Numbered from the stretch's first letter, positions 9,960 to 33,250 are shown. The stretch: DNA of 64,000 nucleotides from Mobula hypostoma (GCF_963921235.1 NC_086108.1:74092001-74156000), one strand, 5' to 3'. Notes: generated from the sequence alone by a model not told the origin. Numbers and translations are program-made.

Positions 9960-10716
9960 ACCACCAACATATCACCTGTGGATCTAACTGAGCCAACAAA
10001 CTTGATCACTGTTATACCACCATCAAGAACACTTACTGCGCTATCCCACACCCACATTTTGGAAAATCCAGTCACCTGGCTGTACTTCTACTCCCAACAT
10101 ATAGGCAGAGAATCAAGACCACAGCACCAGTGGTGAGGACCAAGAAGGTATGGTCAAAGGAGACAGAGGAGCACTTTTAAAACTGCTTTGAGTCAGTGGA
10201 ATTCACAATATTCAAAGAATCATTTTTGAATTGAAATGAATAGGCCATAGTTGTCACCAACTTTGTCAAGACCTTTACCTTCAAGAACATACTGAACATA
10301 CCCAAGCCAAAATCTGTAGATGAACCAGAACCAGGAGATTCATAGTCTGATAAATCTATGGCATTCAAGACCAGTGATCCAGAATGATACAAGAAGTCCA
10401 GGTACAACCTACCGGAAAGCTATTTTAACAGTGAAAAAACAAATTGATTGAAGTTCGAGATGGAATTGGATGCATGTCAGCTCTGCCAGGGTTTGCAGGC
10501 AATTACTTGCAACAGGGCAAAACCTTTCATCATGAATGGCTGTGATGATCAAAGTTCAAAGTCTGCAGCATCTGGTGACCCTGTGATCTCTGTTGTGGAG
10601 GCCGATGTCAGAACATCTATCAAGAAGGTCGAACCCTCGCAAATATCAGGCTCTGATGATATTCCTGATAGGGCATTGAAAACGTGTGCCAACCAACTGG
10701 CAGAAGTGTTCAAAGA
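9960..10716 (+). mobile_element. Rex1/Babar-type LINE, 5' part (host of the LTR insertion)
   Basis: Peptide GSDDIPDRALKTCANQLAEVFKD breaks at aaaga (10712-10716) and resumes as catcttcaat (IFN) after 17500. Confidence 0.8.
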
Positions 10717-10916
10717 TGTATCGTATAGCCTCCATTATAATAAGGGACTACTTTATGTTTTAGTAACGTGTCGTTGCATTCACTGTTAGGTGCGTATTGA
10801 TCTGTATGTGTGTGCTGAGTTCGGACTGTTTGCCAGTAAAGAACCATGAAACTTAGCTCCCGTCTCCAGCATTTTTATTAATAACATTGTTGTGTAACCA
10901 GGCCACGTACACAACA
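10717..10916 (+). repeat. 5' LTR
   Basis: Direct repeat of 17274-17495, followed by the PBS. Confidence 0.9.
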
Positions 10917-10978
10917 AATTGGCGACGAGGTTAATGAACCTATATCTTATCAGAATGCAGTGTTTTAGTTGATAATGA

Positions 10979-11146
10979 CACTCGGAGAAAAAGCGCAAGG
11001 TACGAGCCATGGAGTGGGAGAAGAAGGCAGAGCGAGGCCGTGACTCCGAAAGGAAGCAGGAGCACAGCCACGGTCGGGAACGTTGGGAGACCAAGAGACA
11101 CAGTCGGAGCCGCAGCATGTCCAGGCAAGACCACAGCCGGCGCTGA
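10979..11146 (+). pseudogene. ACIN1: Host-derived RS-rich fragment resembling the C-terminus of Acinus (ACIN1), in the element leader
   Basis: Frame reads HSEKKRKVRAMEWEKKAERGRDSERKQEHSHGRERWETKRHSRSRSMSRQDHSRR* (TGA 11144-11146); resembles the recalled ACIN1 tail (..EREKEAER..KRREHSR..RRDTKRHSRSRSRST..RR*); W/Q/H/M residues fit CpG decay of R/T codons. Confidence 0.55.
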
Positions 11147-11349
11147 CTCCCAGGGCTGAGGGTCTGCCTGCCCCACACATCTAGACGGAGTGCGCTCATG
11201 GCGCTAGCAAAAAGGACACGTGAGTCAAAAAGAAAACAAGGGGAAAATGGGGCTAAATTAACATAACAAAGATGGCGATGATTGGAACCATTACAGCATT
11301 TGATAATGGCATTGAAGACTGGGCAACTTACATTGAGAGAGTGGAGTTA

Positions 11350-13283
11350 CAGTGGCATGCAAAAGTCGGACACCCCTGTTCAAAATTTCTGTTACTGTGA
11401 ATAGTTAAGCGAGTAAAAGATGAACTGATTTCCAAAAGTCATAAAGTTGAAGATGACACATTTCTTTAATATTTTAAGCAAGAAAACTTTTTTATTTCCA
11501 CCTTTTACACTTTCAAAATAACAAAAAAAGTTTGGGCACCCTGCATGGCAGTACTTAGCAACACCCCCTTTGGCAAGTATCACAGCTTGTAAACTCTTTT
11601 TGTAGCCAGTTAAGAGTCTTTCAATTCTTGTTTGGAGGATTTTCGCCCATTCTTTCTTGCAAAAGGCTTCTAGTTCAGTGAGATTCTTGGGCCATCTTGC
11701 ATGCACTGCTCTTTTGAGGTCTATCCAAAGATTCGCGATGATGTTTAGATCAGGGGACTGTGAGGGCCATGGCAAAACCTTCAGCTTGCACCTCTTGAGG
11801 TAGGGTATTGTGGATTTTGAGGTGTGTTTAGGATCATTATCCTGTTGTAGAAGCCATCCATCTGATGGACTTTTACCACTGTACCATTGAGAGCATACTC
11901 ACCAACTGCATCTCAGTGTGGTATGGCAATTGTCCCGTATCGGACCGCAAAGCACTCCAGCATGTGATGAAAACTGCCCAGCAGATTATCGGCACCCAGT
12001 TGCCCAACATTGAGAACATCTACCATAAACGCTGCCTGGGCAGGGCAAAAAGCATTATCAAGGATGCATCTCACCCTAACTATGGACATTTTACTCTCCT
12101 CCCATCCGGTAGGCGCTACAGGAGCCTCTACTCCCGCACCAGCAGGCACAGGAAGAGCTTCTTCCCTGAGGCTGTGACCCTGCTGAACCTCATCACATTG
12201 TTAAGCAGCATTGCACCCATATTGTACTGTCTCAGTACTTTTATATTTGGGTGCTGTAGCACTTACTTTTTATTCGCAGTTATTTTATAAATAACACTAT
12301 TCTTTGCATTTCTGGTCAGATGCTAACTGCATTTCATTGGTTTTGTATATGTACTCGGCACAATGACAATAAAGTTGAATTTAATCCAATCTAATTAATC
12401 CTCTTTTCATCTTCAGCTTTTTTTACAGATGGTGTGATGTTTGCTTCCAGAATTTGCTGGTATTTAATTGAATTCATTCTTCCCTCTACCAGTACCGTGC
12501 CACTGGTTGCAATACAAGCCCAAAGCATGATCGATCCATCCCCATGCTTAACGGTTGGAGAGGGGTTCTTTTCATTAAATTTTGCACTCTTTTTTTCTCC
12601 AATGAACCTTTGCTCATTGCGGCCAAAAAGTTCTATTCAAAAGGTTCAAAGGAACATCTAAACAAGCCTGATACATTTTAGAAATAAGTCCTGTGGACTG
12701 ATGAAGTTAAAATAGAACTTTCAAAAAAGTCTCTAAAAAAGCTGAAGATGAAAAGCGGATGACATCTACAACAGGATAATGATCCTAAACATCCCTCAAA
12801 ATCCACAATGGACGACTTCAAGAGGCACAAGCTGAAGGTTTTGCCATGGCCCTCACAGTCCCCCGACCTAAACATCATCTAGAATCTGTGGATAGACCTC
12901 AAAAGAGCTGTGCATGCAAGAAGCCCAAGAATCTCACAGACCTAGAAGCCTCTTGCAAGGAAGAATGGGCGAAAATCCCCCAAACAAGAATTGAAAGACT
13001 CTTAGTTGGCTACAAAAAGTGTTTACAAGCTGTGATACTTGCCAAAGGGGGCATTACTAAGTACTGCCATACAGGGTGCCCAAACTTTTGCTTCAGGCCC
13101 TTTTCCTTTTTTGTTATTTTGAAAGTGTAAAAGATGGAAATAAAGAAGTTTTCTTGCTTAAAATATTAAAGAAATGTGTCATCTTTAACTTTATGCCTTT
13201 TGGCTCAGTTCATCTTTTAATCGCTTAGCTATTCACAGTAAGAGAAATTTTGACCGGGGTGCCCAAACTTTTGCATGCCACTG
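11350..13283. mobile_element. Tc1/mariner foldback derivative: two transposase 3' halves in inverted orientation
   Basis: Termini cagtggcatgcaaaag / cttttgcatgccactg; TA duplication at 11348-49 and 13284-85; WPSQSPDLN motif region on minus (11392-11775) and its mirror on plus (~12845-13070); QQDNDPKH region on plus. Confidence 0.85.
11862..12397 (+). mobile_element. Rex1/Babar-type LINE 3' fragment nested in the Tc1 element
   Basis: ORF 11865-12290 FYHCTIESILTNCISVWYGN...LLPSGRRYRSL; tail caataaagttgaat(ctaat)n-like. Confidence 0.8.
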
Positions 13284-13727
13284 TATATTGTGAGGCTAAC
13301 AGTGTTAATGATGAAAAGAAAGCCAGCGTCTTACTCAGGCTACGTCCACACTACACCGGATAATTTTGAAAACACCTGTTTCGTGTAAAAACGACAGGCA
13401 TCCACACTAGACGTTTTTCCAAATATCTCTGTCCACACTAAAACAGATGTTTGGGCGAATCTACTCCTACTGTGCATGCGCAGACACATCTACAGAAAAC
13501 AAGCGAAGAGGAAACGGTATAATATTTACATTTCCGCGGCGGCGTTGTGCTATTTCCATTGGTCAAAAACTCGAGTACCTACAACAACAGTGAAAGAAAG
13601 TTTTCAACAATGTCTTCAAGGAATACAAAGAAAACTGGGAAAGACAGACTGGACTTCTTCGTTTAGACAATGAAGTCGAGCTGTTTCTGCGAGTTACAAA
13701 TGACTACAAAGTCAGCAAATCAGTGGA

Positions 13728-14128
13728 GATGTTTAATTCTAAACCAGCTATTAACATAGACAATAAAGTAAACAACACACGCAAAAAGCCATCGTCTACC
13801 CAAGATCAACAATTACAGAATGTTAAATGGTCAACTCGACATAGACTACCAATCCCACATCAAACCCAAACCTATTAGGAGCAGAAGAGGGCACTCAACT
13901 CAATTTGAAACACTAACTACCAAGTCAGATGTGTACGGCAATTCATTTTCCCCCCGCACAATTAAAGCATGAAATAATCTTAATCCTAACACAGTCACAC
14001 AACCAAACCCAGTTAAATTTAAGGTAGATTTTCTTCTTCAAAAACCTCCTTCTTCAGCCCACCCTCTGCCACCTTCAGTTTAAATCCCATGCGGAATATT
14101 TTGGAGGATCAAGAACCAAGAACCAAGA
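13728..14128 (+). mobile_element. 5'-truncated LINE (CR1/L2/Crack-like) with (CCAAGAA)n tail
   Basis: RT C-terminal remnant ...SFFPRTIKA*NNL; TSD cagtgga at 13721-27 and 14129-35. Confidence 0.65.
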
Positions 14129-14282
14129 CAGTGGAATCTTCTGCCGCCAGACCTGCGCAGTATTTCTGACATTATTATTTTTAAAGATGGACTCAATCAA
14201 TTTTGGGGATCTAGTCAAAAAAGCTCACTTTACAATTGAACTCTCATGCCATTCACACCGACTGCACGTTATAACAGCGGTG

Positions 14283-14475
14283 GTCAGTCAGTGCCGGCTT
14301 AGAGACCCCAGGGTACAGGAGATCGAGGGTACGACCACCGCAAACTTGGAGACCGGAGAGTACGGACAGAAGAACAGAGGATGCAAACAGAGATACCAAG
14401 GGAACCAGCTTGAAAGCCACGTCCAGTTTAAATTCCATGCGGAATATTTTGGAGGATCAAGAACCAAGAACCAAG
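14283..14475 (+). mobile_element. SINE with a tRNA-like head and the same 3' tail as the adjacent LINE
   Basis: TSD aacagc(g/a)gtg at 14273-82 and 14476-85; B-box-like gagggtacgaccaccg; ~52-bp tail nearly identical to 14076-14128. Confidence 0.6.
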
Positions 14476-15798
14476 AACAGCAGTGCTTGTGCGGTACCAA
14501 GCAGAAGCAGAAAAAGCATTGTTGTTGTGGTGTTGTCACGACAATGTTTTTAAATCTCTCCGTTTACCCTGTCTACACTACAATGCGAAACAATCACTTT
14601 CAAATTTGCACACCCTGGAGAGTGTTTTCAAAAATCTCTGTTTTCAGGGGATAAAAATGCCGTTTCAGTGTGGACAGAAGGTCAAAACGAAGAGAAAAAG
14701 CTTCATTTTCAATATTATCCAGTGTAGTGTGGATGTAGCCTCAGTATTAATGGGAGCAAAAACAGATGGGCTGCTATGGAGCTTGTTAACCCCTGAAAAG
14801 CCAGCTGGCAAAACATTCAAGCAACTAGTAGACACTCTCCAACAGCATTTAAACCCCAAACCACTGGTCATTGCTGAAAGATTTAAATTTCACAAATGGA
14901 ATCAGAGCAAAAATGAAAGCATTTATGAATATTGTGCTGAATTGTGCAAATTATCAGAACATTGTCAATTTGGAGCTGGTCTATTGGACGCATTGAGGGA
15001 CAGGTTAGTGTGTGGCAGGCACTGTAAAACCACAGAGAAGAAGCTCCTGGGTGAAAAAGACCTTTCATTAGAGAAGGTGCTGAACATTACAATGTCAACG
15101 GAAACAGCAGTACAGGGTGCTTCAGAGATACAACAAAAATCTCTGGAGTATGCTACGAATAAAATGTCACTGAACAGAAATGAAGGAAAGAAATGTTACC
15201 TTTGTGACCCTGATGACTATTGGTTTAAAGACAAAGAATGTAGAAACTGTGGCAAACAGGGCCACATTGGCAGAGTATGCAAAGCTAGTAAACAGCAGAA
15301 AAAGGACAAAATACAGAAAAAGAAGAAACCCTGGAAAGGAAAGCACAACAATGTACACAAAATGGAAGAAAGCAGATCTGATGAAAACGACTCAGACGAA
15401 AGTGAATTGCCTTGTCTGCAACTTCACAGCATGAAAGAGACAGATGATTGAAGACTATAAGGATCTCTCCACAAGTGGCGGGCATGATACTGAAAATGGA
15501 GTTGGACACAAGCTCAAATTTAACAGTGATCTGTACACGATTACAAATGACTGTTTTCTCACATACCTCTGAAACGAACTAAACTACTGCTAAAGACTTA
15601 CACAGGACAAAAAGTGCGTCCCAAAGGTAAAATTAAAGTGATAGTGACCTACCGAGATAAAAGACAGACAGCTGAACCTCTACGTACTGAAAAATACCCA
15701 CCGTAGCTGGGACATGAATGGCTCAGGAAAATCCAGTTCGATTGGCACACCATCAAGGCCTAGATGTGTCAACAAAGGAGGGCAGCTCAGCGGGGAAG

Positions 15799-16710
15799 AT
15801 GTCCGCAGCTCTCCTCTCACCCATTTTCAACTATTACAATGACGAGGAAGAGCTAGACAGTGTCGATGATGACGAACGCAGTATCCATGGTCGCGAATCG
15901 GATGAAGATACAGAGGATGCAAGTGAGACAGATATTGCCAATAAGCAGGATGATGAAGACTACCTGGAAGTAAAAGAGCAGATGTACCAGGAGAAATTGA
16001 CATCTCTCAAAAGACAGCTACAGCAGTTACAGGAAGGCACTTTGCAGGAGTATCAGAAAAGGATGAAGAAACTAGATTAACAATACAAGAAAAGAATACG
16101 AAATGCAGAGCTTTTTCTGCAACTGGAGACAGAACAAGTGGAAAGGAATTAAAGAGAAAAAAGCAGCAGTGAAAGAATTTGAAGATTAAAAAGATTTGAG
16201 TTAGAAGAAAAGAAAAAGATGATTGAGAATGAGAGGCTATCAATGGAACTCACAGGAGATTCTATGGAGTTAAAGCCAATAATGACTAGGAAACTAAGGA
16301 GGAGATCTAATGACCGTGCTTCCATTACAGACAAAAGACGAAAACCTGCACCTGCGCAGTTAAATTACTTGTTAACAGGTGAACAGATAATGGAAGATCT
16401 GCAAACTCTCAATAAGCTTAAATCTCCTGAGCATCTTCCCAGCACTCCTGCTGAACAACCAGCACAAAGACATGAAGCACGAATAGAAGATGGAAAGTTA
16501 TATCATGAGAGGAGATGGTATCATAAAGGTCAGGCTATCTATTTGGAATCTAAGGAGAATATGAAGATTGGCTGTATAATTAGCTCAGTTGGAACAAATG
16601 AGATATGGGTAAGGAAGACAAGTGATAGCACAAAGGTACGTATATATCTAGGACAGCTGCACAGAGGAGTCTTCATTATACGGAGGCGATCTGCTGCCCA
16701 GAACTCTTAG
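15799..16710 (+). pseudogene. SUDS3: Processed (intronless) SUDS3 copy, Sin3/HDAC corepressor subunit SDS3; probable 3'UTR continues to ~17040
   Basis: MSAALLSP...[14 protein letters not shown]...[34 protein letters not shown]; ...IMTRKLRRR...[10 protein letters not shown]...[10 protein letters not shown]...[20 protein letters not shown]...IRRRSAA; premature stop 16078-16080, frameshift near 16150, internal deletions. Confidence 0.95.
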
Positions 16711-17273
16711 CAAGTTGGAGGCGCACATCTTCTTAACTCCCTATGCTCAGAGGTCAACTTTTCATTACTTTTAGGTGGAAATCTGCATTAAAATAAACAA
16801 GTTTATTGACAGACTGAAGAACACACTATTTGAAGACACTTTACAATGCCATTCTCAGTTTTGATGATTGTACATGTTTTTAAGAATAACATTCACCTTT
16901 TCACGGGTTTCACTTTGCTTTCATCATCTTTGCACGATGGAGGTGACTACTCTTTATGGCTGGAACCTGCCAGTTTGTGGATTGCTTAATTTATTCCAGA
17001 CAACAAAGTGAGACCTATTTGCTTCAGTGCCGGACAATCTAGAGAAGACCCCCCCCCCCGAGACTTGAGTTATAAATGGGTCTTAGACCAAAAGTTAAAA
17101 AAAAGGCTTGTTATAATTCGATATTATTATGTTACTTTGTTATAATTTGATATTATTAAGTTGCTAAGTAAACAAATGGTAGGCATTTGTATGTTAAGGT
17201 AAACATATTTGTTTAGCATAATGCCCCAGTAAAAAAAAACAGTTGATACACTATTGAAATAAAAGGGGAGGAG

Positions 17274-17495
17274 TGTACCATATAGCCTACATTGTAGTAA
17301 GGGACTGCTTTATGTTTTAGTAACACGTCGTTGCATGCGCTATTAGGCGTGTATGGAGCATGCACTATTAGGTGCGTATTGATCTGTATGTGTGTGTCAA
17401 GTTCGGACTCTGCCAGTAAAGAACCATGAAACTTAGCTCCTGTCTCCAGTGTTTTTATTAATAGCATTTTTGTGTACCAGGCCACATACACAACA
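17274..17495 (+). repeat. 3' LTR, with an extra ~25-bp internal tandem unit
   Basis: Preceded by the PPT, followed by TSD aaaga at 17496-17500. Confidence 0.9.
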
Positions 17496-17500
17496 AAAGA

Positions 17501-26968: not shown

Positions 26969-27978
26969 TATACAACCCTGAGATTAATTTTCTTGCAGAC
27001 ATACTCAATAAATACAGTAACCATAATATTATCAATGAAAGACCACACCATCTGGGCATACAACCATTGTGCAAAAGACAACAAACTGCAAATACTAAAA
27101 GAAAAAAGAAATAATAATAATTTATTTATTTATAGATAAACACATAGATAAATAAATAAGCAATATATCAAGATGAAGATTCTTTGAAAGTGAGTCCATA
27201 GATGTGAGAACATCTCAGTGTAACATGCTGTAGGGTTTCACTGCTGTGTAACATGCTGTAAGGTTTCACTGAAAACGTAATGGGTTCTCTGTAGCAGCAA
27301 TGTTTGGGTTATGACTAGAGATAACGGTGTTTGGAATGCTGTTGTTCTTTCTTGTGAGCTGGAACAGAGATTTTCGCGGTCTTTTGCCAGGGAGAGATGA
27401 GGAGAGAAGACGCGAATGGAGGGAGTTGGTAGACCGCCAGACGGGTGGACTTGGAGCGAGGGTCCGAAGGGCAGCGAAGATCGGAGGAGGTCAATGGTGG
27501 CCGATAGGCTTATCAGTGAGCTCCAACGTTGCGGAACAGACTGTTTAATAAGATTGGACCCTTTTTCTGTTATTTTCGTTTCTTTACTAAGTATATAGTC
27601 AAAGTAAGAATTATAAAGCTTAATCGCATATTCTGTACTGTTTGTTATTTTGGGTACTGATTTGTAATGGGGCCACATTGTGCCGCATCCACCCAAACGA
27701 GATTTCTTAAGTTTGGCCGGGCCAGGGGCTATCATATCCTATATTAAGCCGCAAGCCAAAGCGAGAGTTAAAATTGTGGGGGCTATGTTCAGGATTGATT
27801 CTATTGGATGTTGTGTGATTACCCTGAGCAATGAACCAATGGGGCAGATATTTGCACTCCGGATGAATTGTTAATTCCACTGTTAAGTACTGTTGAAGTT
27901 GCGATTGTGGGTGGAGGTTTGATAAAATGGCCAACGCCGCTCTAGTTTCTGAGGAGTGAGGGGAAAGAGTGGTCGAAT

Positions 27979-28876
27979 TTGGAATGTCTAATTAGTCCAC
28001 GTCCCCTGGTGAAGAGTGAGAATTCTGAGTTAGTATCCACCCTTACTTCTCTGGCGAATAAATGGAAAAATCAGATTCAAAGTCCCAGCTATGGCAGGCT
28101 CCGCCAGTTCTCTGGAATAACAACAACCCCTAAAGGGGAGGAGGAGCATGAGAGATGGGCGGAGCAGACCTTTCAGTTGTTGGGTGAGTGGCAGTGCTCT
28201 GATAATGAAAAGCAACAGAGATTGTTTGAAAGTTTGAATGGGCGGGCCGCTGACATTGTGAGAGCTGTCAGGTTGAAATCTGTCAATTACATGCAAGCAC
28301 TGGACAATGCTTTCAGCCCAACTGGAAGCCCAATGGAGTTCATGGTGGGGTTTCAGAACATGCATCAGGAGAAGGGGGAGAAGCTTTCTGCTTTGATTTT
28401 TCAGCTAGAGAGGCAGCTAAATTGCTTGCGGCGCAGAGGGGTCATTCAGGCAGCCGAGGTGGATCTGTTAAGAATGGACCAGATAGCCAGGGTCCCCCAG
28501 TCCCATGACCTGATTGCTTGGGGTCTCCGACAGTCTCGTAAGACGTGCCCCCACTTTCCCTTTTGTTGAGCTGATCAGAGAGGTACGGGAAGAGGAGAAC
28601 ACGGCGGAGGCGCGGGAGGACTCCGTCAGCAGGGTACAGTCCTCGGTAGTGGTCCCTTGCGGTGAAGTGACCACAGATAGCCTACCCCAGGGAGCAGTAG
28701 AGGAGGTTGTGGCAGAGTTGAGAATGGAGATATATCGACTGTTATCAGCGGGTGTGACCCCCCCCCCATATGATGGAGCTGATGGGGGGGCGGATTCCCC
28801 AAGGGGACGAACAATGCGGAGGGCTGCTGGCAGCAGGTGTCACACCAGAAGGAGAGTGAGCCCCCCGGGTACCTAA
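27979..28876 (+). pseudogene. Gypsy gag (PNMA/MOAP1-like capsid), frameshifted
   Basis: YGRLRQFSG...GEEEHERWAEQ...EWQCSDNEKQQRLFESLNGRAADIVR...QEKGEKLSA. Confidence 0.8.
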
Positions 28877-29004
28877 GCAGAAAGTCATTGGGAAAACCCA
28901 GGGGAGACCCAGTGAGGGAACGTCCTGATGTCTCTGGGGGAGCATGTTCCTAGCAATGTACCAAGGAACCCCTGAAAGCAAAAGACCCAATTCCTGAAGG
29001 CTTA

Positions 29005-32000
29005 GTGGGACCATGCTCCAGTGTGTCGCTACGAATAGAGGCTATTTATGCTGAAGCCACACTTGACCTCGGGTTGCAGGTCACGTTGTTGTACCATTCA
29101 TTTTACATCCGGTGTCTGAAGCATTTACCATTGACACCATTCAGATCTGGGGGCTTAGTGCTGGTGATTATCCATACAATGGTTATTTGTCAGTGAAGTT
29201 GGAGTTCTCGGAGGCCGATGTGGGAGTGTCTGAGGTCCTTGATACATTGGTGCTGGTTTGTCCAGACCCTGCTGAGAAGAGCGGTGTTCCAATTCTGGTA
29301 GGGACCAACACCCCTCTTGTGAAGAGGCTCGTGGGGGCCTGCAAGGAGAAAGCTGGCGAGAGCTTTCTGGGGACATTGCCTGTGCACCCAGGGTTTTGAG
29401 CTGCTTTTGAGGAAGTGTGTGGCAGCATTGGGCCAGATACCGAATTTAAATGAGGGACTGTGTGGTTTACCCAATCGAAGCCAATGGTGGTACGGCCCGG
29501 GGAAGTAGCAAGAGTGATGGGGACCACCAAATTTCCCAGAGTGCCTGAGGGTGAAGCCCACTTAGTGGATGCTCCAGAAGACTATGAGGGGGAGTGGGGA
29601 TTTCCTGCTGGGGTACAGGTGAGGCCCAAATTGCAGAAGCCCTTGGTTGTACAGGAACACAGGATGGCAGTGACTGTCAGGAACACTACAAAGAGGGAGG
29701 TCACCTTCAAGCAGGGGATGCCTCTGGCGCATTTGTTCCCGGTGACGGTAATGTCTGGTGCCCCTGTGAGACACGCTGGGGAGAAACTATTGGAAAAGGG
29801 GAGGAAAGTTGACCGCTGAGTCATTCAACTTTGGAGTCTCCCCGGTTCCTGTAGATTGGAAGAGGAGGCTGGTAGAGAAGATGTTGAAGCTGGAAGGTGT
29901 CTTTTCCACTGACAAGTTTGATGTGGGTTGTTCCAAGAGCACACGTCACACTATCTGGGTGACTGAGGATATCCTGTTCAGAGAAAGATTGCGGCGATTG
30001 GCCCCTGAAGAGGTTTTGCAGCATTTCTGTATGTTGAAGGAAGCTGGGATCATCACCGAGTCCCGAAGCCCCTAGTAGTGGCCCAAAAGGAGAATGGGAA
30101 GGTACGGATGTATGTGGGCTATAGGACTTTCAACAGGTGCACCATCCCTGATCTGTGTACTGTCCCGAGGATTGAAGGTGCGCTGGCCTGCCTGAGTGGT
30201 GCGAAGTGGTTCAGTGTGCTGGACTTGAGGAGTGGATATTACCAGATCCCCATGAATGAGGCCAACAAAGAGAAAATGGCATTTATATGTTCCCTAGGAT
30301 TTTTCCAGTTTGAAAGGATGCCCCAGGGCATTTCAGGAGCTCCTGCAACCTTCCGGCAGGTCATGGAGAAGACCCTGGGGGATATGAACTTGCTTGAGGT
30401 ATTGGTATATCTGGATGACCTCATAGTATTTGGATCCACCTTGGAAGAACAAGAAGTGAGGCTGCTGAAGGTGCTGGGTCACCTGAAAGCAGAAGGGTTA
30501 AAACTTTCCCTGGACAAGTGCCAGTTCTGCCAAAAGTCTGTTAGCTATGTTGGGCGCATAGTCTCATGGGATGGGGTAGTTACAGACCCAGCTAAGATCG
30601 AGGCCGTTACCACTTGGCCAAGACCCCAGACTGTGAGTGCTCTGGGCTCATTCCTCAGATTCTGTGGTTACTATCGGAGGTTTGTGAAAGGCTACACGAA
30701 ATGCATCACCCTTTGAATCAGCTTCTGTGTGGTTACCCTCCCTTGGGGAACAAAGGGAGGGGGAGAAAGGACAGGAGTGTGGAGAGTATCTTAGCCTGTC
30801 AGAGCCCTTTGGACCAAGGTGGGATGCAAAATGTGAGGAGGCCTTTCAGCCTCTGAAGGAGCTGCTGACCCAAGCGCCGGTGCTGGCTTTTGCGGACCCC
30901 CGATTCCCATATGTACTGCACACGGATGCCAGCCGAGAGGGCTTAGGGGGTGTCCTGTATCAGGATCAGGGCTCCGGATTGAGGCCCGTTGCATTTGTCA
31001 GCCGGAGACTGTCGCCCTCCGAGAAAAACTATCCCATGCACAAGTTGGAATTTCTGGCATTGAAATGGGCGGTGGTGGATAAGCTGAGTGACTACCTCTA
31101 CAGGGCCAAGTTTGAGGTGAGGACGGACAACAACCCCCTAACTTATATCCTGACCTCGGCGAAACTGGATGCCACAGGCCATCGGTGGTTGGCGGCGTTG
31201 TCTGCCTATGATTTCAGCCTGAAGTACCAGCTGGGGAGCTGGAACATTAATGCAGATGCTTTGTCCCGACGGGTGCATGAGGGACTAGACAGAGACAAGG
31301 AGTGGGAGAGCATTCCTGCCCTGGGGGTGAAGGCCCTGTGTCAGTTTGCCATCACCATGAAGGCAGAGAAAAAGGAGGGGCAAGAGTGAGTGGTGGATCA
31401 ACTGAGGGCTTCTGATGATGCCATCCCCCCAAGTTTATTGTAACCTGACAGCTCTGAAGACAAATCAACTTCTGGAATTGAGTTCTGGGGAAGGGGCAGC
31501 TGCTCAGCGAGATGATCCGGACATTGATCCCATTTGGGCGGCAGTTGAAAAGGGAGACATGGCTCAGGTGGAGAGGACGAAATATGCGTCAGTGCCTCCG
31601 TTACTACAAGAATGGCCTCAGTTGAAGTTGAAGAACCAGATCTTATACCGGGTCACGTCACTGCCAGACCGACCCCGGCGTTGCCAGCTTGTTCTGCCCG
31701 AGAAGTATCGGAGGATGGCATTAAAATCACTTCATGATGACTCTGGACATTCGGGGGTGGAAAAGACCTATGGATTGCTGAGAGACCGGTTTTACTGGCC
31801 CTGAATGAAGTTGGAGGTTGAAGAATACTGCAAGTCATGCATTCAAAGCATACGGCGGAAGACACTGCCTACACGGGTAGCTCCCTTGTCCCACATGCAG
31901 AGTGCGGGGCCTCTGGACCTGGTGTGTATGGATTTCCTGTCAATAGAATCTGATGCCAGCAACACGGTGAAATTCTTAGTCATCACAGACCACTACACCA

Positions 32001-33250
32001 GATATGCTCAGGCTTTTCCTACCAAGGACCAGACGGCGTCTACGGTGGCAAAAGTGTTATGGGAGAAGTATTTCATTTATTTTGGACTTCCCAGGTGAAT
32101 ACATAGTGATCAGGGACAGGATTTCGAGAGCAGACTCATCCGTGAGTTACTGGGCATGCTTGGAGTCGAGGTCGAGGACCATGCCCTATCACCCATGGGG
32201 TGATCCCCAGCCAGGGAGCTTTAATTCGACCTTGTTAGACATGCTTGGGACCCTGCAGATCAGCAAGAAGAGCAGGTGGAGTCAACATATTGGGTACCTG
32301 GTTCACAGTTATAATTGTACACAAAATGAAGCCACTGGGTACTCGCCATATTATCTGATGTTCGGGCGCGAGGCAAGGTTGCCCATTGACCTTTGTTTTG
32401 GGACTGACAAGGGTGACTTACCACCGAAGACTTATCTGAAGTATGTGCCTGACATGAGAAGAGAGTTGAAAAGGACTTATGAATTAGCTGGGGTCGCGGC
32501 TGCCCAGCAGAATCAAGGGAATAAGAGGAGGTATGATCAAAAGGTGAGGTTCTTTCAACTCCAGCCAGGAGACAGAGTCCTCATAAGGAATTTGGGGCTA
32601 CCTGGAAAGCATAAGTTGGCTGACTGTTGGGCGGCCACACCCTATGTGGTGGAGTCAGATGCCAAACCTACCAGTTTTCTGGGTGAAACCAGAGGATGGG
32701 AATGGGCCTGTAAAGATTCTCCATCGGAGCCACCTGTTGCCCCTGGGACAAGAGGTGCAGGTAGACCCAGAGCCCAACTTGGAGACTATACCTAGTAAGA
32801 GGACTCTGCGGAAATGCAGGGTGACTACTGGGCCCCCAACAGGTGGGGTTAGGCCGTCCCCCACCCTTGAGAGGGATATTGATTCGGAGGATGAGGACCT
32901 GGATGTGTGGTATATGCTGCCTTTTGCTAACTCCCCATTGATTACGGAAGAGACTCCCGGCCTTTCTCCCATTGAGACAGGTGAAGTGGTGGGGGGGTGC
33001 TATCTGTGGGCAGCCTGGGTTGCAGCGGGACTCTGCAGGGGAGGAGGCGGGGTTTGATCACAGGACAGAGGGCTCCGAGTTGCAGGTGGGCACGAGTGAT
33101 AGATCGGGGGAGGCCTCGCCAGACGGACTGGAAGTATCCCCAGTAGTGTCGGAACCTGAAGAGTTAGATGATGGAGTGCGGAGGTCTCAGAGAATTAGGA
33201 GGCCACTGGATAGGTTGGCCTACGTAGCACCAAGGGAACAGAGTGCGACC
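29005..33250 (+). pseudogene. Gypsy pol (protease, RT, RNase H, integrase) with multiple stops and frameshifts
   Basis: FSVLDLRSGYYQI, RMPQGISGAPATF, VYLDDLIVF, LHTDASREGLGGVL, RTDNNPL, HDDSGH...C..C, VCMDFL, GYSPYYLMFGREARLP. Confidence 0.9.

Follow-up and report, generated by a model that had tools for sequence, protein, structure and literature searches.

The element at the locus and its SUDS3 segment

The window analyzed here, a 64,000-nt stretch of the Mobula hypostoma genome, contains at 10717..17495 a Gypsy-type long terminal repeat (LTR) retrotransposon in which the core of pol is replaced by sequence of the host gene SUDS3 (coordinates in Table 1). An initial annotation made from the sequence alone had reported both LTRs, a primer-binding site (PBS), a polypurine tract (PPT) and a 5-bp target-site duplication, and all were located, with AAAGA on either side of the element. 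The gag and protease remnants reported there are also present, the zinc-knuckle match being weak (E 0.008, which fails the cut-off), and the SUDS3 part matches Sds3 (Pfam PF08598, E 9e-6). When the window copy is aligned to a pol-bearing relative of the same family, the match ends at 15786 and picks up again only in the 3' region; the element therefore lacks reverse transcriptase (RT), RNase H and integrase, as had been proposed, and the element sequence that had been read as resuming after the cDNA with the last codons of pol does match the pol ends of relatives. An intronless SUDS3 coding sequence plus 3' untranslated region (UTR) had been placed at 15799-~17040; the intronless sequence and its end at 17040 stand, but the host segment begins further upstream, at 15787, within the 5'UTR.

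The parent of this segment was found with a pattern combining last-exon and splice-acceptor sequence, which hit a single place, on contig C78. Read by walking upstream, with exon 1 located by DNA search, parental SUDS3 comprises 12 coding exons and 11 introns across ~59 kb; the joined exons form an open 960-nt frame whose protein is identical to the SDS3 models of Mobula birostris and Hemitrygon akajei, save for isoform insertions in those models. In the window, the host segment comprises all 12 exons, preceded by 12 nt of 5'UTR and followed by the initial 339 nt of a 3'UTR that continues further in the parent. In the element copies all 11 introns are missing and the 12 exons are joined, as in LTR-mediated retrocopies. 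Parental intron 7 (between exons 7 and 8; L063, G000:C78 ~8398850-8395740) begins ATATCC and ends AC, presumably the AT-AC pattern of the minor spliceosome; its clean absence from the copies is further evidence of a spliced-mRNA template. A 991-nt contig (run X2 record 30) opens with the end of protease, shows gaps that would fit an undeleted host exon 6 and runs out in intron 10 of the host gene; host and element sequence were probably joined in assembly.

The breakpoints of the chimera could be mapped, as the initial annotation had advised, against the parental mRNA on one side and a relative with pol on the other. At the 5' junction the two share the 7-nt GGGCAGC, and counting further back 9 of 10 bases are alike; the chance of at least 7 shared bases at random breakpoint pairs is 0.0006. 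Two types of 3' junction occur in the family, a long one (that of the window) and a short one, the latter lying at a shared 5-nt CAGAC (chance 0.006). At the 5' junction the pol-bearing relatives run on into RT, and their similarity to the chimera returns only where pol ends; the mRNA thus replaces part of the internal open reading frame (ORF). The cDNA has neither a poly(A) nor a target-site duplication of its own, as had been noted: there is no A-run of six or more in 16950-17090, and the 50 nt before and the 50 nt after the host segment have no word of more than 5 nt in common, hence no internal duplication. The missing introns and the microhomologies at the 5' and short 3' junctions support the proposal that SUDS3 mRNA was captured by template switching; integration of the chimera as one unit is supported as well, hundreds of copies having the same junctions and differing target-site duplications.

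Alternatively, a long interspersed element (LINE) could have made a SUDS3 retrocopy that inserted in a pol-deleted element, or the copies could be segmental duplications. LINE remnants are frequent here (the window element is itself embedded in one), and a LINE origin would also fit the lack of exact microhomology at the long 3' junction. However, no poly(A) or internal duplication surrounds SUDS3, the 3' truncation lies within the UTR, the 5' junction carries its 7-nt homology, and among 29 protease matches there is no pol-deleted copy with these breakpoints. Segmental duplication is ruled out by flanks that differ between copies, and 17 distinct target-site duplications, together with the microhomologies, contradict the alternative as a whole, which is very improbable. 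The findings named in advance as signs of an independent retrocopy were thus not seen: SUDS3 is bounded by no duplication or poly(A), and the only pol-deleted copy in the sample that lacks SUDS3, L040, has another 5' breakpoint.

Under template-switch capture, a spliced SUDS3 mRNA would have been packaged in the particle; during minus-strand synthesis RT would have jumped from the pol end to the SUDS3 3'UTR, copied the full coding sequence and rejoined the element where protease ends, at GGGCAGC. RT and integrase would have been supplied in trans by pol-bearing relatives, and co-packaged RNAs may have gone on recombining, giving rise to the shorter 3' junction, to mosaic alleles and to a sub-lineage carrying antisense RNF213 sequence. 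The long 3' form probably preceded the short one: the additional host UTR that it carries (227 nt) is unobtainable from the element, whereas the extra pol tail of the short form is obtainable from it. Two independent captures, one for each 3' type, are ruled out, since both types share the 5' junction, a 24-nt loss and two replacements.

Amplification beside pol-bearing relatives

Genome counts were obtained by pattern searches allowing up to 3 mismatches, for which the reversed controls were all 0. The 5' chimera junction occurs 337 times and the protease-to-RT junction 202 times, with 117 long and 163 short 3' junctions. A search with the SUDS3 segment gave 47 matches (best 40 of 507 candidates); all 29 other SUDS3 loci fetched run on into gag-protease, and an LTR lies downstream in 28 of them. 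Both ends were recovered for 19 of the 27 chimeras tried for duplications (the 8 without recovered ends were left out), and 15 of the 19 measure 3.2-3.75 kb. The 5-bp target-site duplication is exact in 12, has one mismatch in 5 and is absent in 2; all 17 are different. This count, which the initial annotation had suggested making for LTR-flanked SUDS3 copies, shows that the chimera itself transposed. The genome thus contains numerous separate insertions of the same defective element alongside a pol-bearing relative, as for a non-autonomous element mobilized in trans.

Alignments cover 49 of more than 300 copies, skewed to those most similar to the window; left out of the 49 were L032, L038, L043, L047 and L059, which repeat places already included, and L044, though a distinct place. 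The same 24 nt of exon 6 are missing in 49/49 copies (45 with the exact gap, 4 with a split or larger one), and the replacements P187T and S263G are common to nearly all copies; the shared loss and replacements therefore point to one capture. A tree built from 43 copies has a star-like shape (terminal length 1.27 against 0.07 internal) with long and short types intermixed, which would fit a burst with recombination among co-packaged RNAs. Together with the broken frames described below, the tree shows an almost star-like radiation of the copies, followed by decay. Capture followed by amplification of the chimera is close to certain.

The putative partner is represented among the protease matches, of which 29 were fetched (best 40 of 971 candidates): 24 lead into SUDS3, 4 into RT, and one, L040 (G000:C96:43100892-43104245), is mixed. 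L040 runs ~140 nt into RT and then jumps, at a shared 7-mer, to a 3' end resembling that of a long-type chimera; this single copy is possibly a recombinant of partner and chimera RNAs. Two RT-bearing copies, when extended, proved to have RNase H and integrase, and their pol end and LTR are those of the chimeras. The pol-bearing relatives share LTRs, gag and protease with the chimeras, gag and protease forming one continuous gag-pol frame in the family; RT starts directly after protease, and RNase H and the integrase zinc finger and core were identified by Pfam on L045, L068 and L041. Placement in Gypsy follows from this domain order, which is that of Gypsy pol, and from the nearest named Gag relatives, which are Gypsy K02A2.6-like polyproteins (some with RVT_1). 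Pol-bearing L041 has TG...CA LTRs, a tRNA PBS, a PPT and an exact 5-bp duplication. LTR divergence is similar in chimeras (mean 0.102, range 0.064-0.153) and in the single pol-bearing copy measured (0.122); the window pair is identical at 177 of 197 aligned bases (Kimura two-parameter distance 0.11).

Reading frame and the role of the SUDS3 cargo

The host ATG lies four codons past the 5' junction, and the frame from the protease motif to this ATG is kept in 41 of 49 copies, the window copy being one of the 8 in which it is broken. Decay is otherwise extensive: only 2 of 43 full-length SUDS3 parts are without stops or frameshifts, and in none of 34 copies does an unbroken frame run from gag to the SUDS3 stop. 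The window copy was rightly described as inactivated: besides the family-wide 24-nt loss, its SUDS3 part has a stop (16078), two frameshifts (near 16148 and near 16190) and a further loss of 27 nt near 16423. At gag-protease codon 318 (L045 numbering) about half of 48 chimeras have a stop, as do 3/5 non-chimeric relatives, with a strand asymmetry of 24/29 (P 0.0005, uncorrected); this stop could be a mutation hot spot or an inheritance from defective templates.

Nonsense-mediated decay and packaging in cis are established processes, and selection might on these grounds have acted on the open reading frame and not on SUDS3 function: a frame reaching to a stop near the 3' end would give a stable, translated RNA that is packaged in cis, so that in-frame captures and deletions would be favored whatever the protein did. 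The in-frame junction in most copies, the fact that the sole indel common to all copies is in frame, and the lack of visible constraint at the amino-acid level agree with this idea. The RNF213 sub-lineage, however, carries antisense sequence in mid-frame and multiplied nonetheless, and the codon-318 stop could mean that templates with an early stop were replicated, unless it is a hot spot. Such selection is unlikely, and it would refine capture and trans amplification of a passenger more than replace it.

As for the protein itself, the cargo is probably a passenger, and a function for it is not supported; the importance that the initial annotation had implied for an element carrying a silencing factor is thus not borne out. 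The shared loss removes 8 residues inside the solved Sds3 coiled coil (4ZQA) that are invariant in four host models from chimaera to ray, and this cut speaks for SUDS3 being a passenger; the Sin3-interaction segment (2N2H) and the capped Tudor domain (7SXI) are kept in the family. At non-CpG sites the share of replacement changes fits neutrality in each frequency class, though the test is weak: observed versus simulated under neutrality, it is 0.777 vs 0.770 for singletons, 0.700 vs 0.710 for doubletons and 0.596 vs 0.663 (P 0.12) for alleles seen at least 3 times. Copies and parent are separated by 7 fixed non-CpG synonymous differences (unpolarized), while ~240 sites x 0.03 are expected to have changed on the parent lineage since the burst; the 7 match the parent lineage's own expected changes, so that selection on the element would not be needed to explain them.

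Checking those copies in which the SUDS3 match ends early revealed an antisense RNF213 insert of >800 nt near codon 226 in 5/49 copies (5/24 from the protease search) on five contigs: L033, L048, L049, L051 and L061. The inserts are 85-92% identical between copies, and their opposite strand matches the RING region of RNF213 (E 7e-30). Since this split sub-lineage multiplied, intact cargo in cis is unnecessary for amplification. Loose ends with the letters of the SUDS3-RNF213 junction are also present in runs of two coded organisms, A and C.

The most far-reaching alternative is that the cargo is functional. The in-frame Gag-protease-SUDS3 product with its trimmed coil might act in trans as a dominant-negative anti-silencing factor: SUDS3 released by protease would bind Sin3, dimerize poorly and so weaken silencing of the family by the Sin3L/HDAC (histone deacetylase) complex. 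The complete coding sequence does lie in frame behind protease, with the Sin3-interaction and Tudor parts kept and the coiled coil alone cut, and SDS3, a core subunit of the complex, provides dimerization and is linked to pericentric heterochromatin (PMC8800102). Action in trans would also let broken-cargo copies ride along, and chimeric junctions exceed those of pol-bearing type. This proposal is nevertheless quite improbable: there is no purifying signal (in a weak test), none of the 34 frames is unbroken, and the RNF213-split lineage was amplified. In addition, no Gag-Sds3 fusion protein was found among 77 Gag relatives (407-2000 aa) or the best 120 of 662 SDS3 matches, which is weak evidence. 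Were the cargo functional, a transposon would have turned a host silencing subunit against silencing, and a dominant-negative action would explain both the chimera outgrowing its pol-bearing partner and the broken-cargo derivatives riding along.

The combined reading, a non-autonomous Gypsy LTR family founded by one mRNA capture, amplified in trans and carrying SUDS3 as a passenger, is likely when taken jointly. Several results weigh against it. Chimeric junctions are more numerous than those of the presumed helper (337 vs 202). The long 3' junction, which is that of the window copy, shows no exact microhomology. The capture is unusually tidy: it took in the entire SUDS3 coding sequence, stop included, in frame with gag-protease, and the shared deletion is in frame as well (each a 1-in-3 chance). 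Summed over all alleles, which are non-independent, the replacement share is 0.703 vs 0.731 simulated (P 0.013). Finally, gag-protease, used as a positive control, is also without purifying signal, so that the selection test is weak; its power is low for cargo and control alike because the tree is star-like.

Related systems and further features of the window

Defective acutely transforming retroviruses carry gag-onc fusions (gag-myc, gag-erbA) in which a spliced cellular gene, joined in frame to gag, takes the place of pol, and they depend on a helper. The SUDS3 chimera differs from them in being a Gypsy element with no env frame seen, no sign of selection on the cargo, and all sampled copies dead. 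Its mechanism of origin is already known: LTR-mediated retrocopies, some of which inserted repeatedly in the manner of non-autonomous elements, have been described in flies, fish, chicken and mammals (Tan et al., 2016; PMC5131818). As in that class, internal ORFs are replaced by mRNA with both LTRs kept and without poly(A) or internal duplication; two-gene chimeras occur there as well, and the microsimilarity at switch points has a median of 6 bp, compared with 7 and 5 nt here and no exact match at the long 3' junction. Unlike the cases presented in the accessible text of that study, the SUDS3 chimera has a whole coding sequence in frame behind gag-protease and a junction found 337 times, above the number of pol-bearing junctions. 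In maize Bs1 and HERV-K FAM8A1 (both cited in PMC5131818) spliced cellular sequence likewise replaces part of an LTR element's own genes, but Bs1 combines fragments of three genes and FAM8A1 represents a single processed pseudogene; a full coding sequence at hundreds of copies is not described for either in the accessible text of PMC5131818. It is thus the scale and completeness that are unusual: with parent, partner, switch points, secondary recombinants and a burst (337 copies or more) all present in a single genome, this is an unusually complete record of vertebrate gene capture by an LTR element.

In the literature searched, which lay outside most subscription journals, Repbase and Dfam, no paper on an LTR-SUDS3 family was found, and only a 2026 preprint (bioRxiv 10.64898/2026.06.26.734816) links SUDS3 to retrocopies in cartilaginous fishes. 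It ranks SUDS3 among the five most retrocopied parents there and, in the accessible part of its text, ties retrocopy abundance to non-LTR elements and selective filtering, with no mention of LTR capture. The copies described here descend, in contrast, from one LTR capture and not from many independent events, and the high rank of SUDS3 probably stems from the multiplication of a single LTR capture, as opposed to recurrent retrocopying by LINEs or to selective retention; the same test can be applied to the other top parents of the preprint (MIPOL1, SDF2L1, SLU7, ZNF276). Four RefSeq 'SDS3-like' models (P0003, P0024, P0030, P0094), two from M. hypostoma and two from M. birostris, have the 8-residue loss, T187 and G263, one of them also with the protease-end peptide; judged by these residues, what was annotated as a gene is probably in each case a copy of the element. 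The 5' junction is spanned by contigs of two coded organisms, C and H, and contigs of H also include both 3' types (4/24 runs; H is not necessarily a separate species).

The window copy itself is 6.8 kb long, about half of it due to two later insertions into gag (Table 1): a Tc1/mariner-like transposon missing in other family copies, and a terminal-inverted-repeat element, which we take to be Harbinger-like, missing in nearly all of them. The tRNA-Ser(GCT) 3' end to which the PBS is complementary has 12 genomic matches, one of which was verified by ARAGORN as tRNA-Ser(gct).

Table 1. Features of the SUDS3-bearing element, in window coordinates
Feature	Position	Strand	Remarks
5' target-site duplication AAAGA	10712..10716	+	same 5 bases at 17496-17500
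5' LTR, TG...CA	10717..10916	+	200 nt
PBS	10920..10930	+	11 nt complementary to tRNA-Ser(GCT) 3' end (CCA added)
gag start	11272..11349	+	placed by alignment with pol-bearing copy L045, whose open gag frame has 283 codons
Later insertion, Tc1/mariner-like DNA transposon	11350..13283	-	between TA duplications; long inverted repeats; Pfam DDE_3 E 3e-7
LINE-like fragment inside the Tc1/mariner-like insertion	~11860-12397		
gag, short middle piece	13284..13337	+	continuous with the gag pieces either side in other copies
Later insertion, terminal-inverted-repeat element	13338..14740	.	non-coding; 3-bp TCA duplication
Remaining gag (zinc knuckle) and protease	14741..15786	+	decayed; frameshifts, one near 15760
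5' switch point GGGCAGC	15780..15786	+	common to protease end and host SUDS3 5'UTR
Host SUDS3 5'UTR, 12 nt (four codons)	15787..15798	+	sets host ATG in protease frame in most copies
Spliced SUDS3 coding sequence, 12 exons	15799..16701	+	5.3% from parent
Host SUDS3 3'UTR, first 339 nt	16702..17040	+	ends ahead of any parental AATAAA/ATTAAA
Last pol codons	17041..17075	+	'long' 3' junction type; matches pol end of L045+L068 and L041+L069
PPT	17261..17273	+	
3' LTR, TG...CA	17274..17495	+	222 nt
3' target-site duplication AAAGA	17496..17500	+	

The leader between PBS and gag (10950-11270) differs in length among copies and encodes at 10979-11146 a stretch rich in Arg, Ser and Glu. Elsewhere in the window, 27946-32795 holds another Gypsy-type element, richer in GC. 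It has frames for RT and RNase H along with Gag-like and integrase-like ones, and it does not align to the SUDS3 chimera family.

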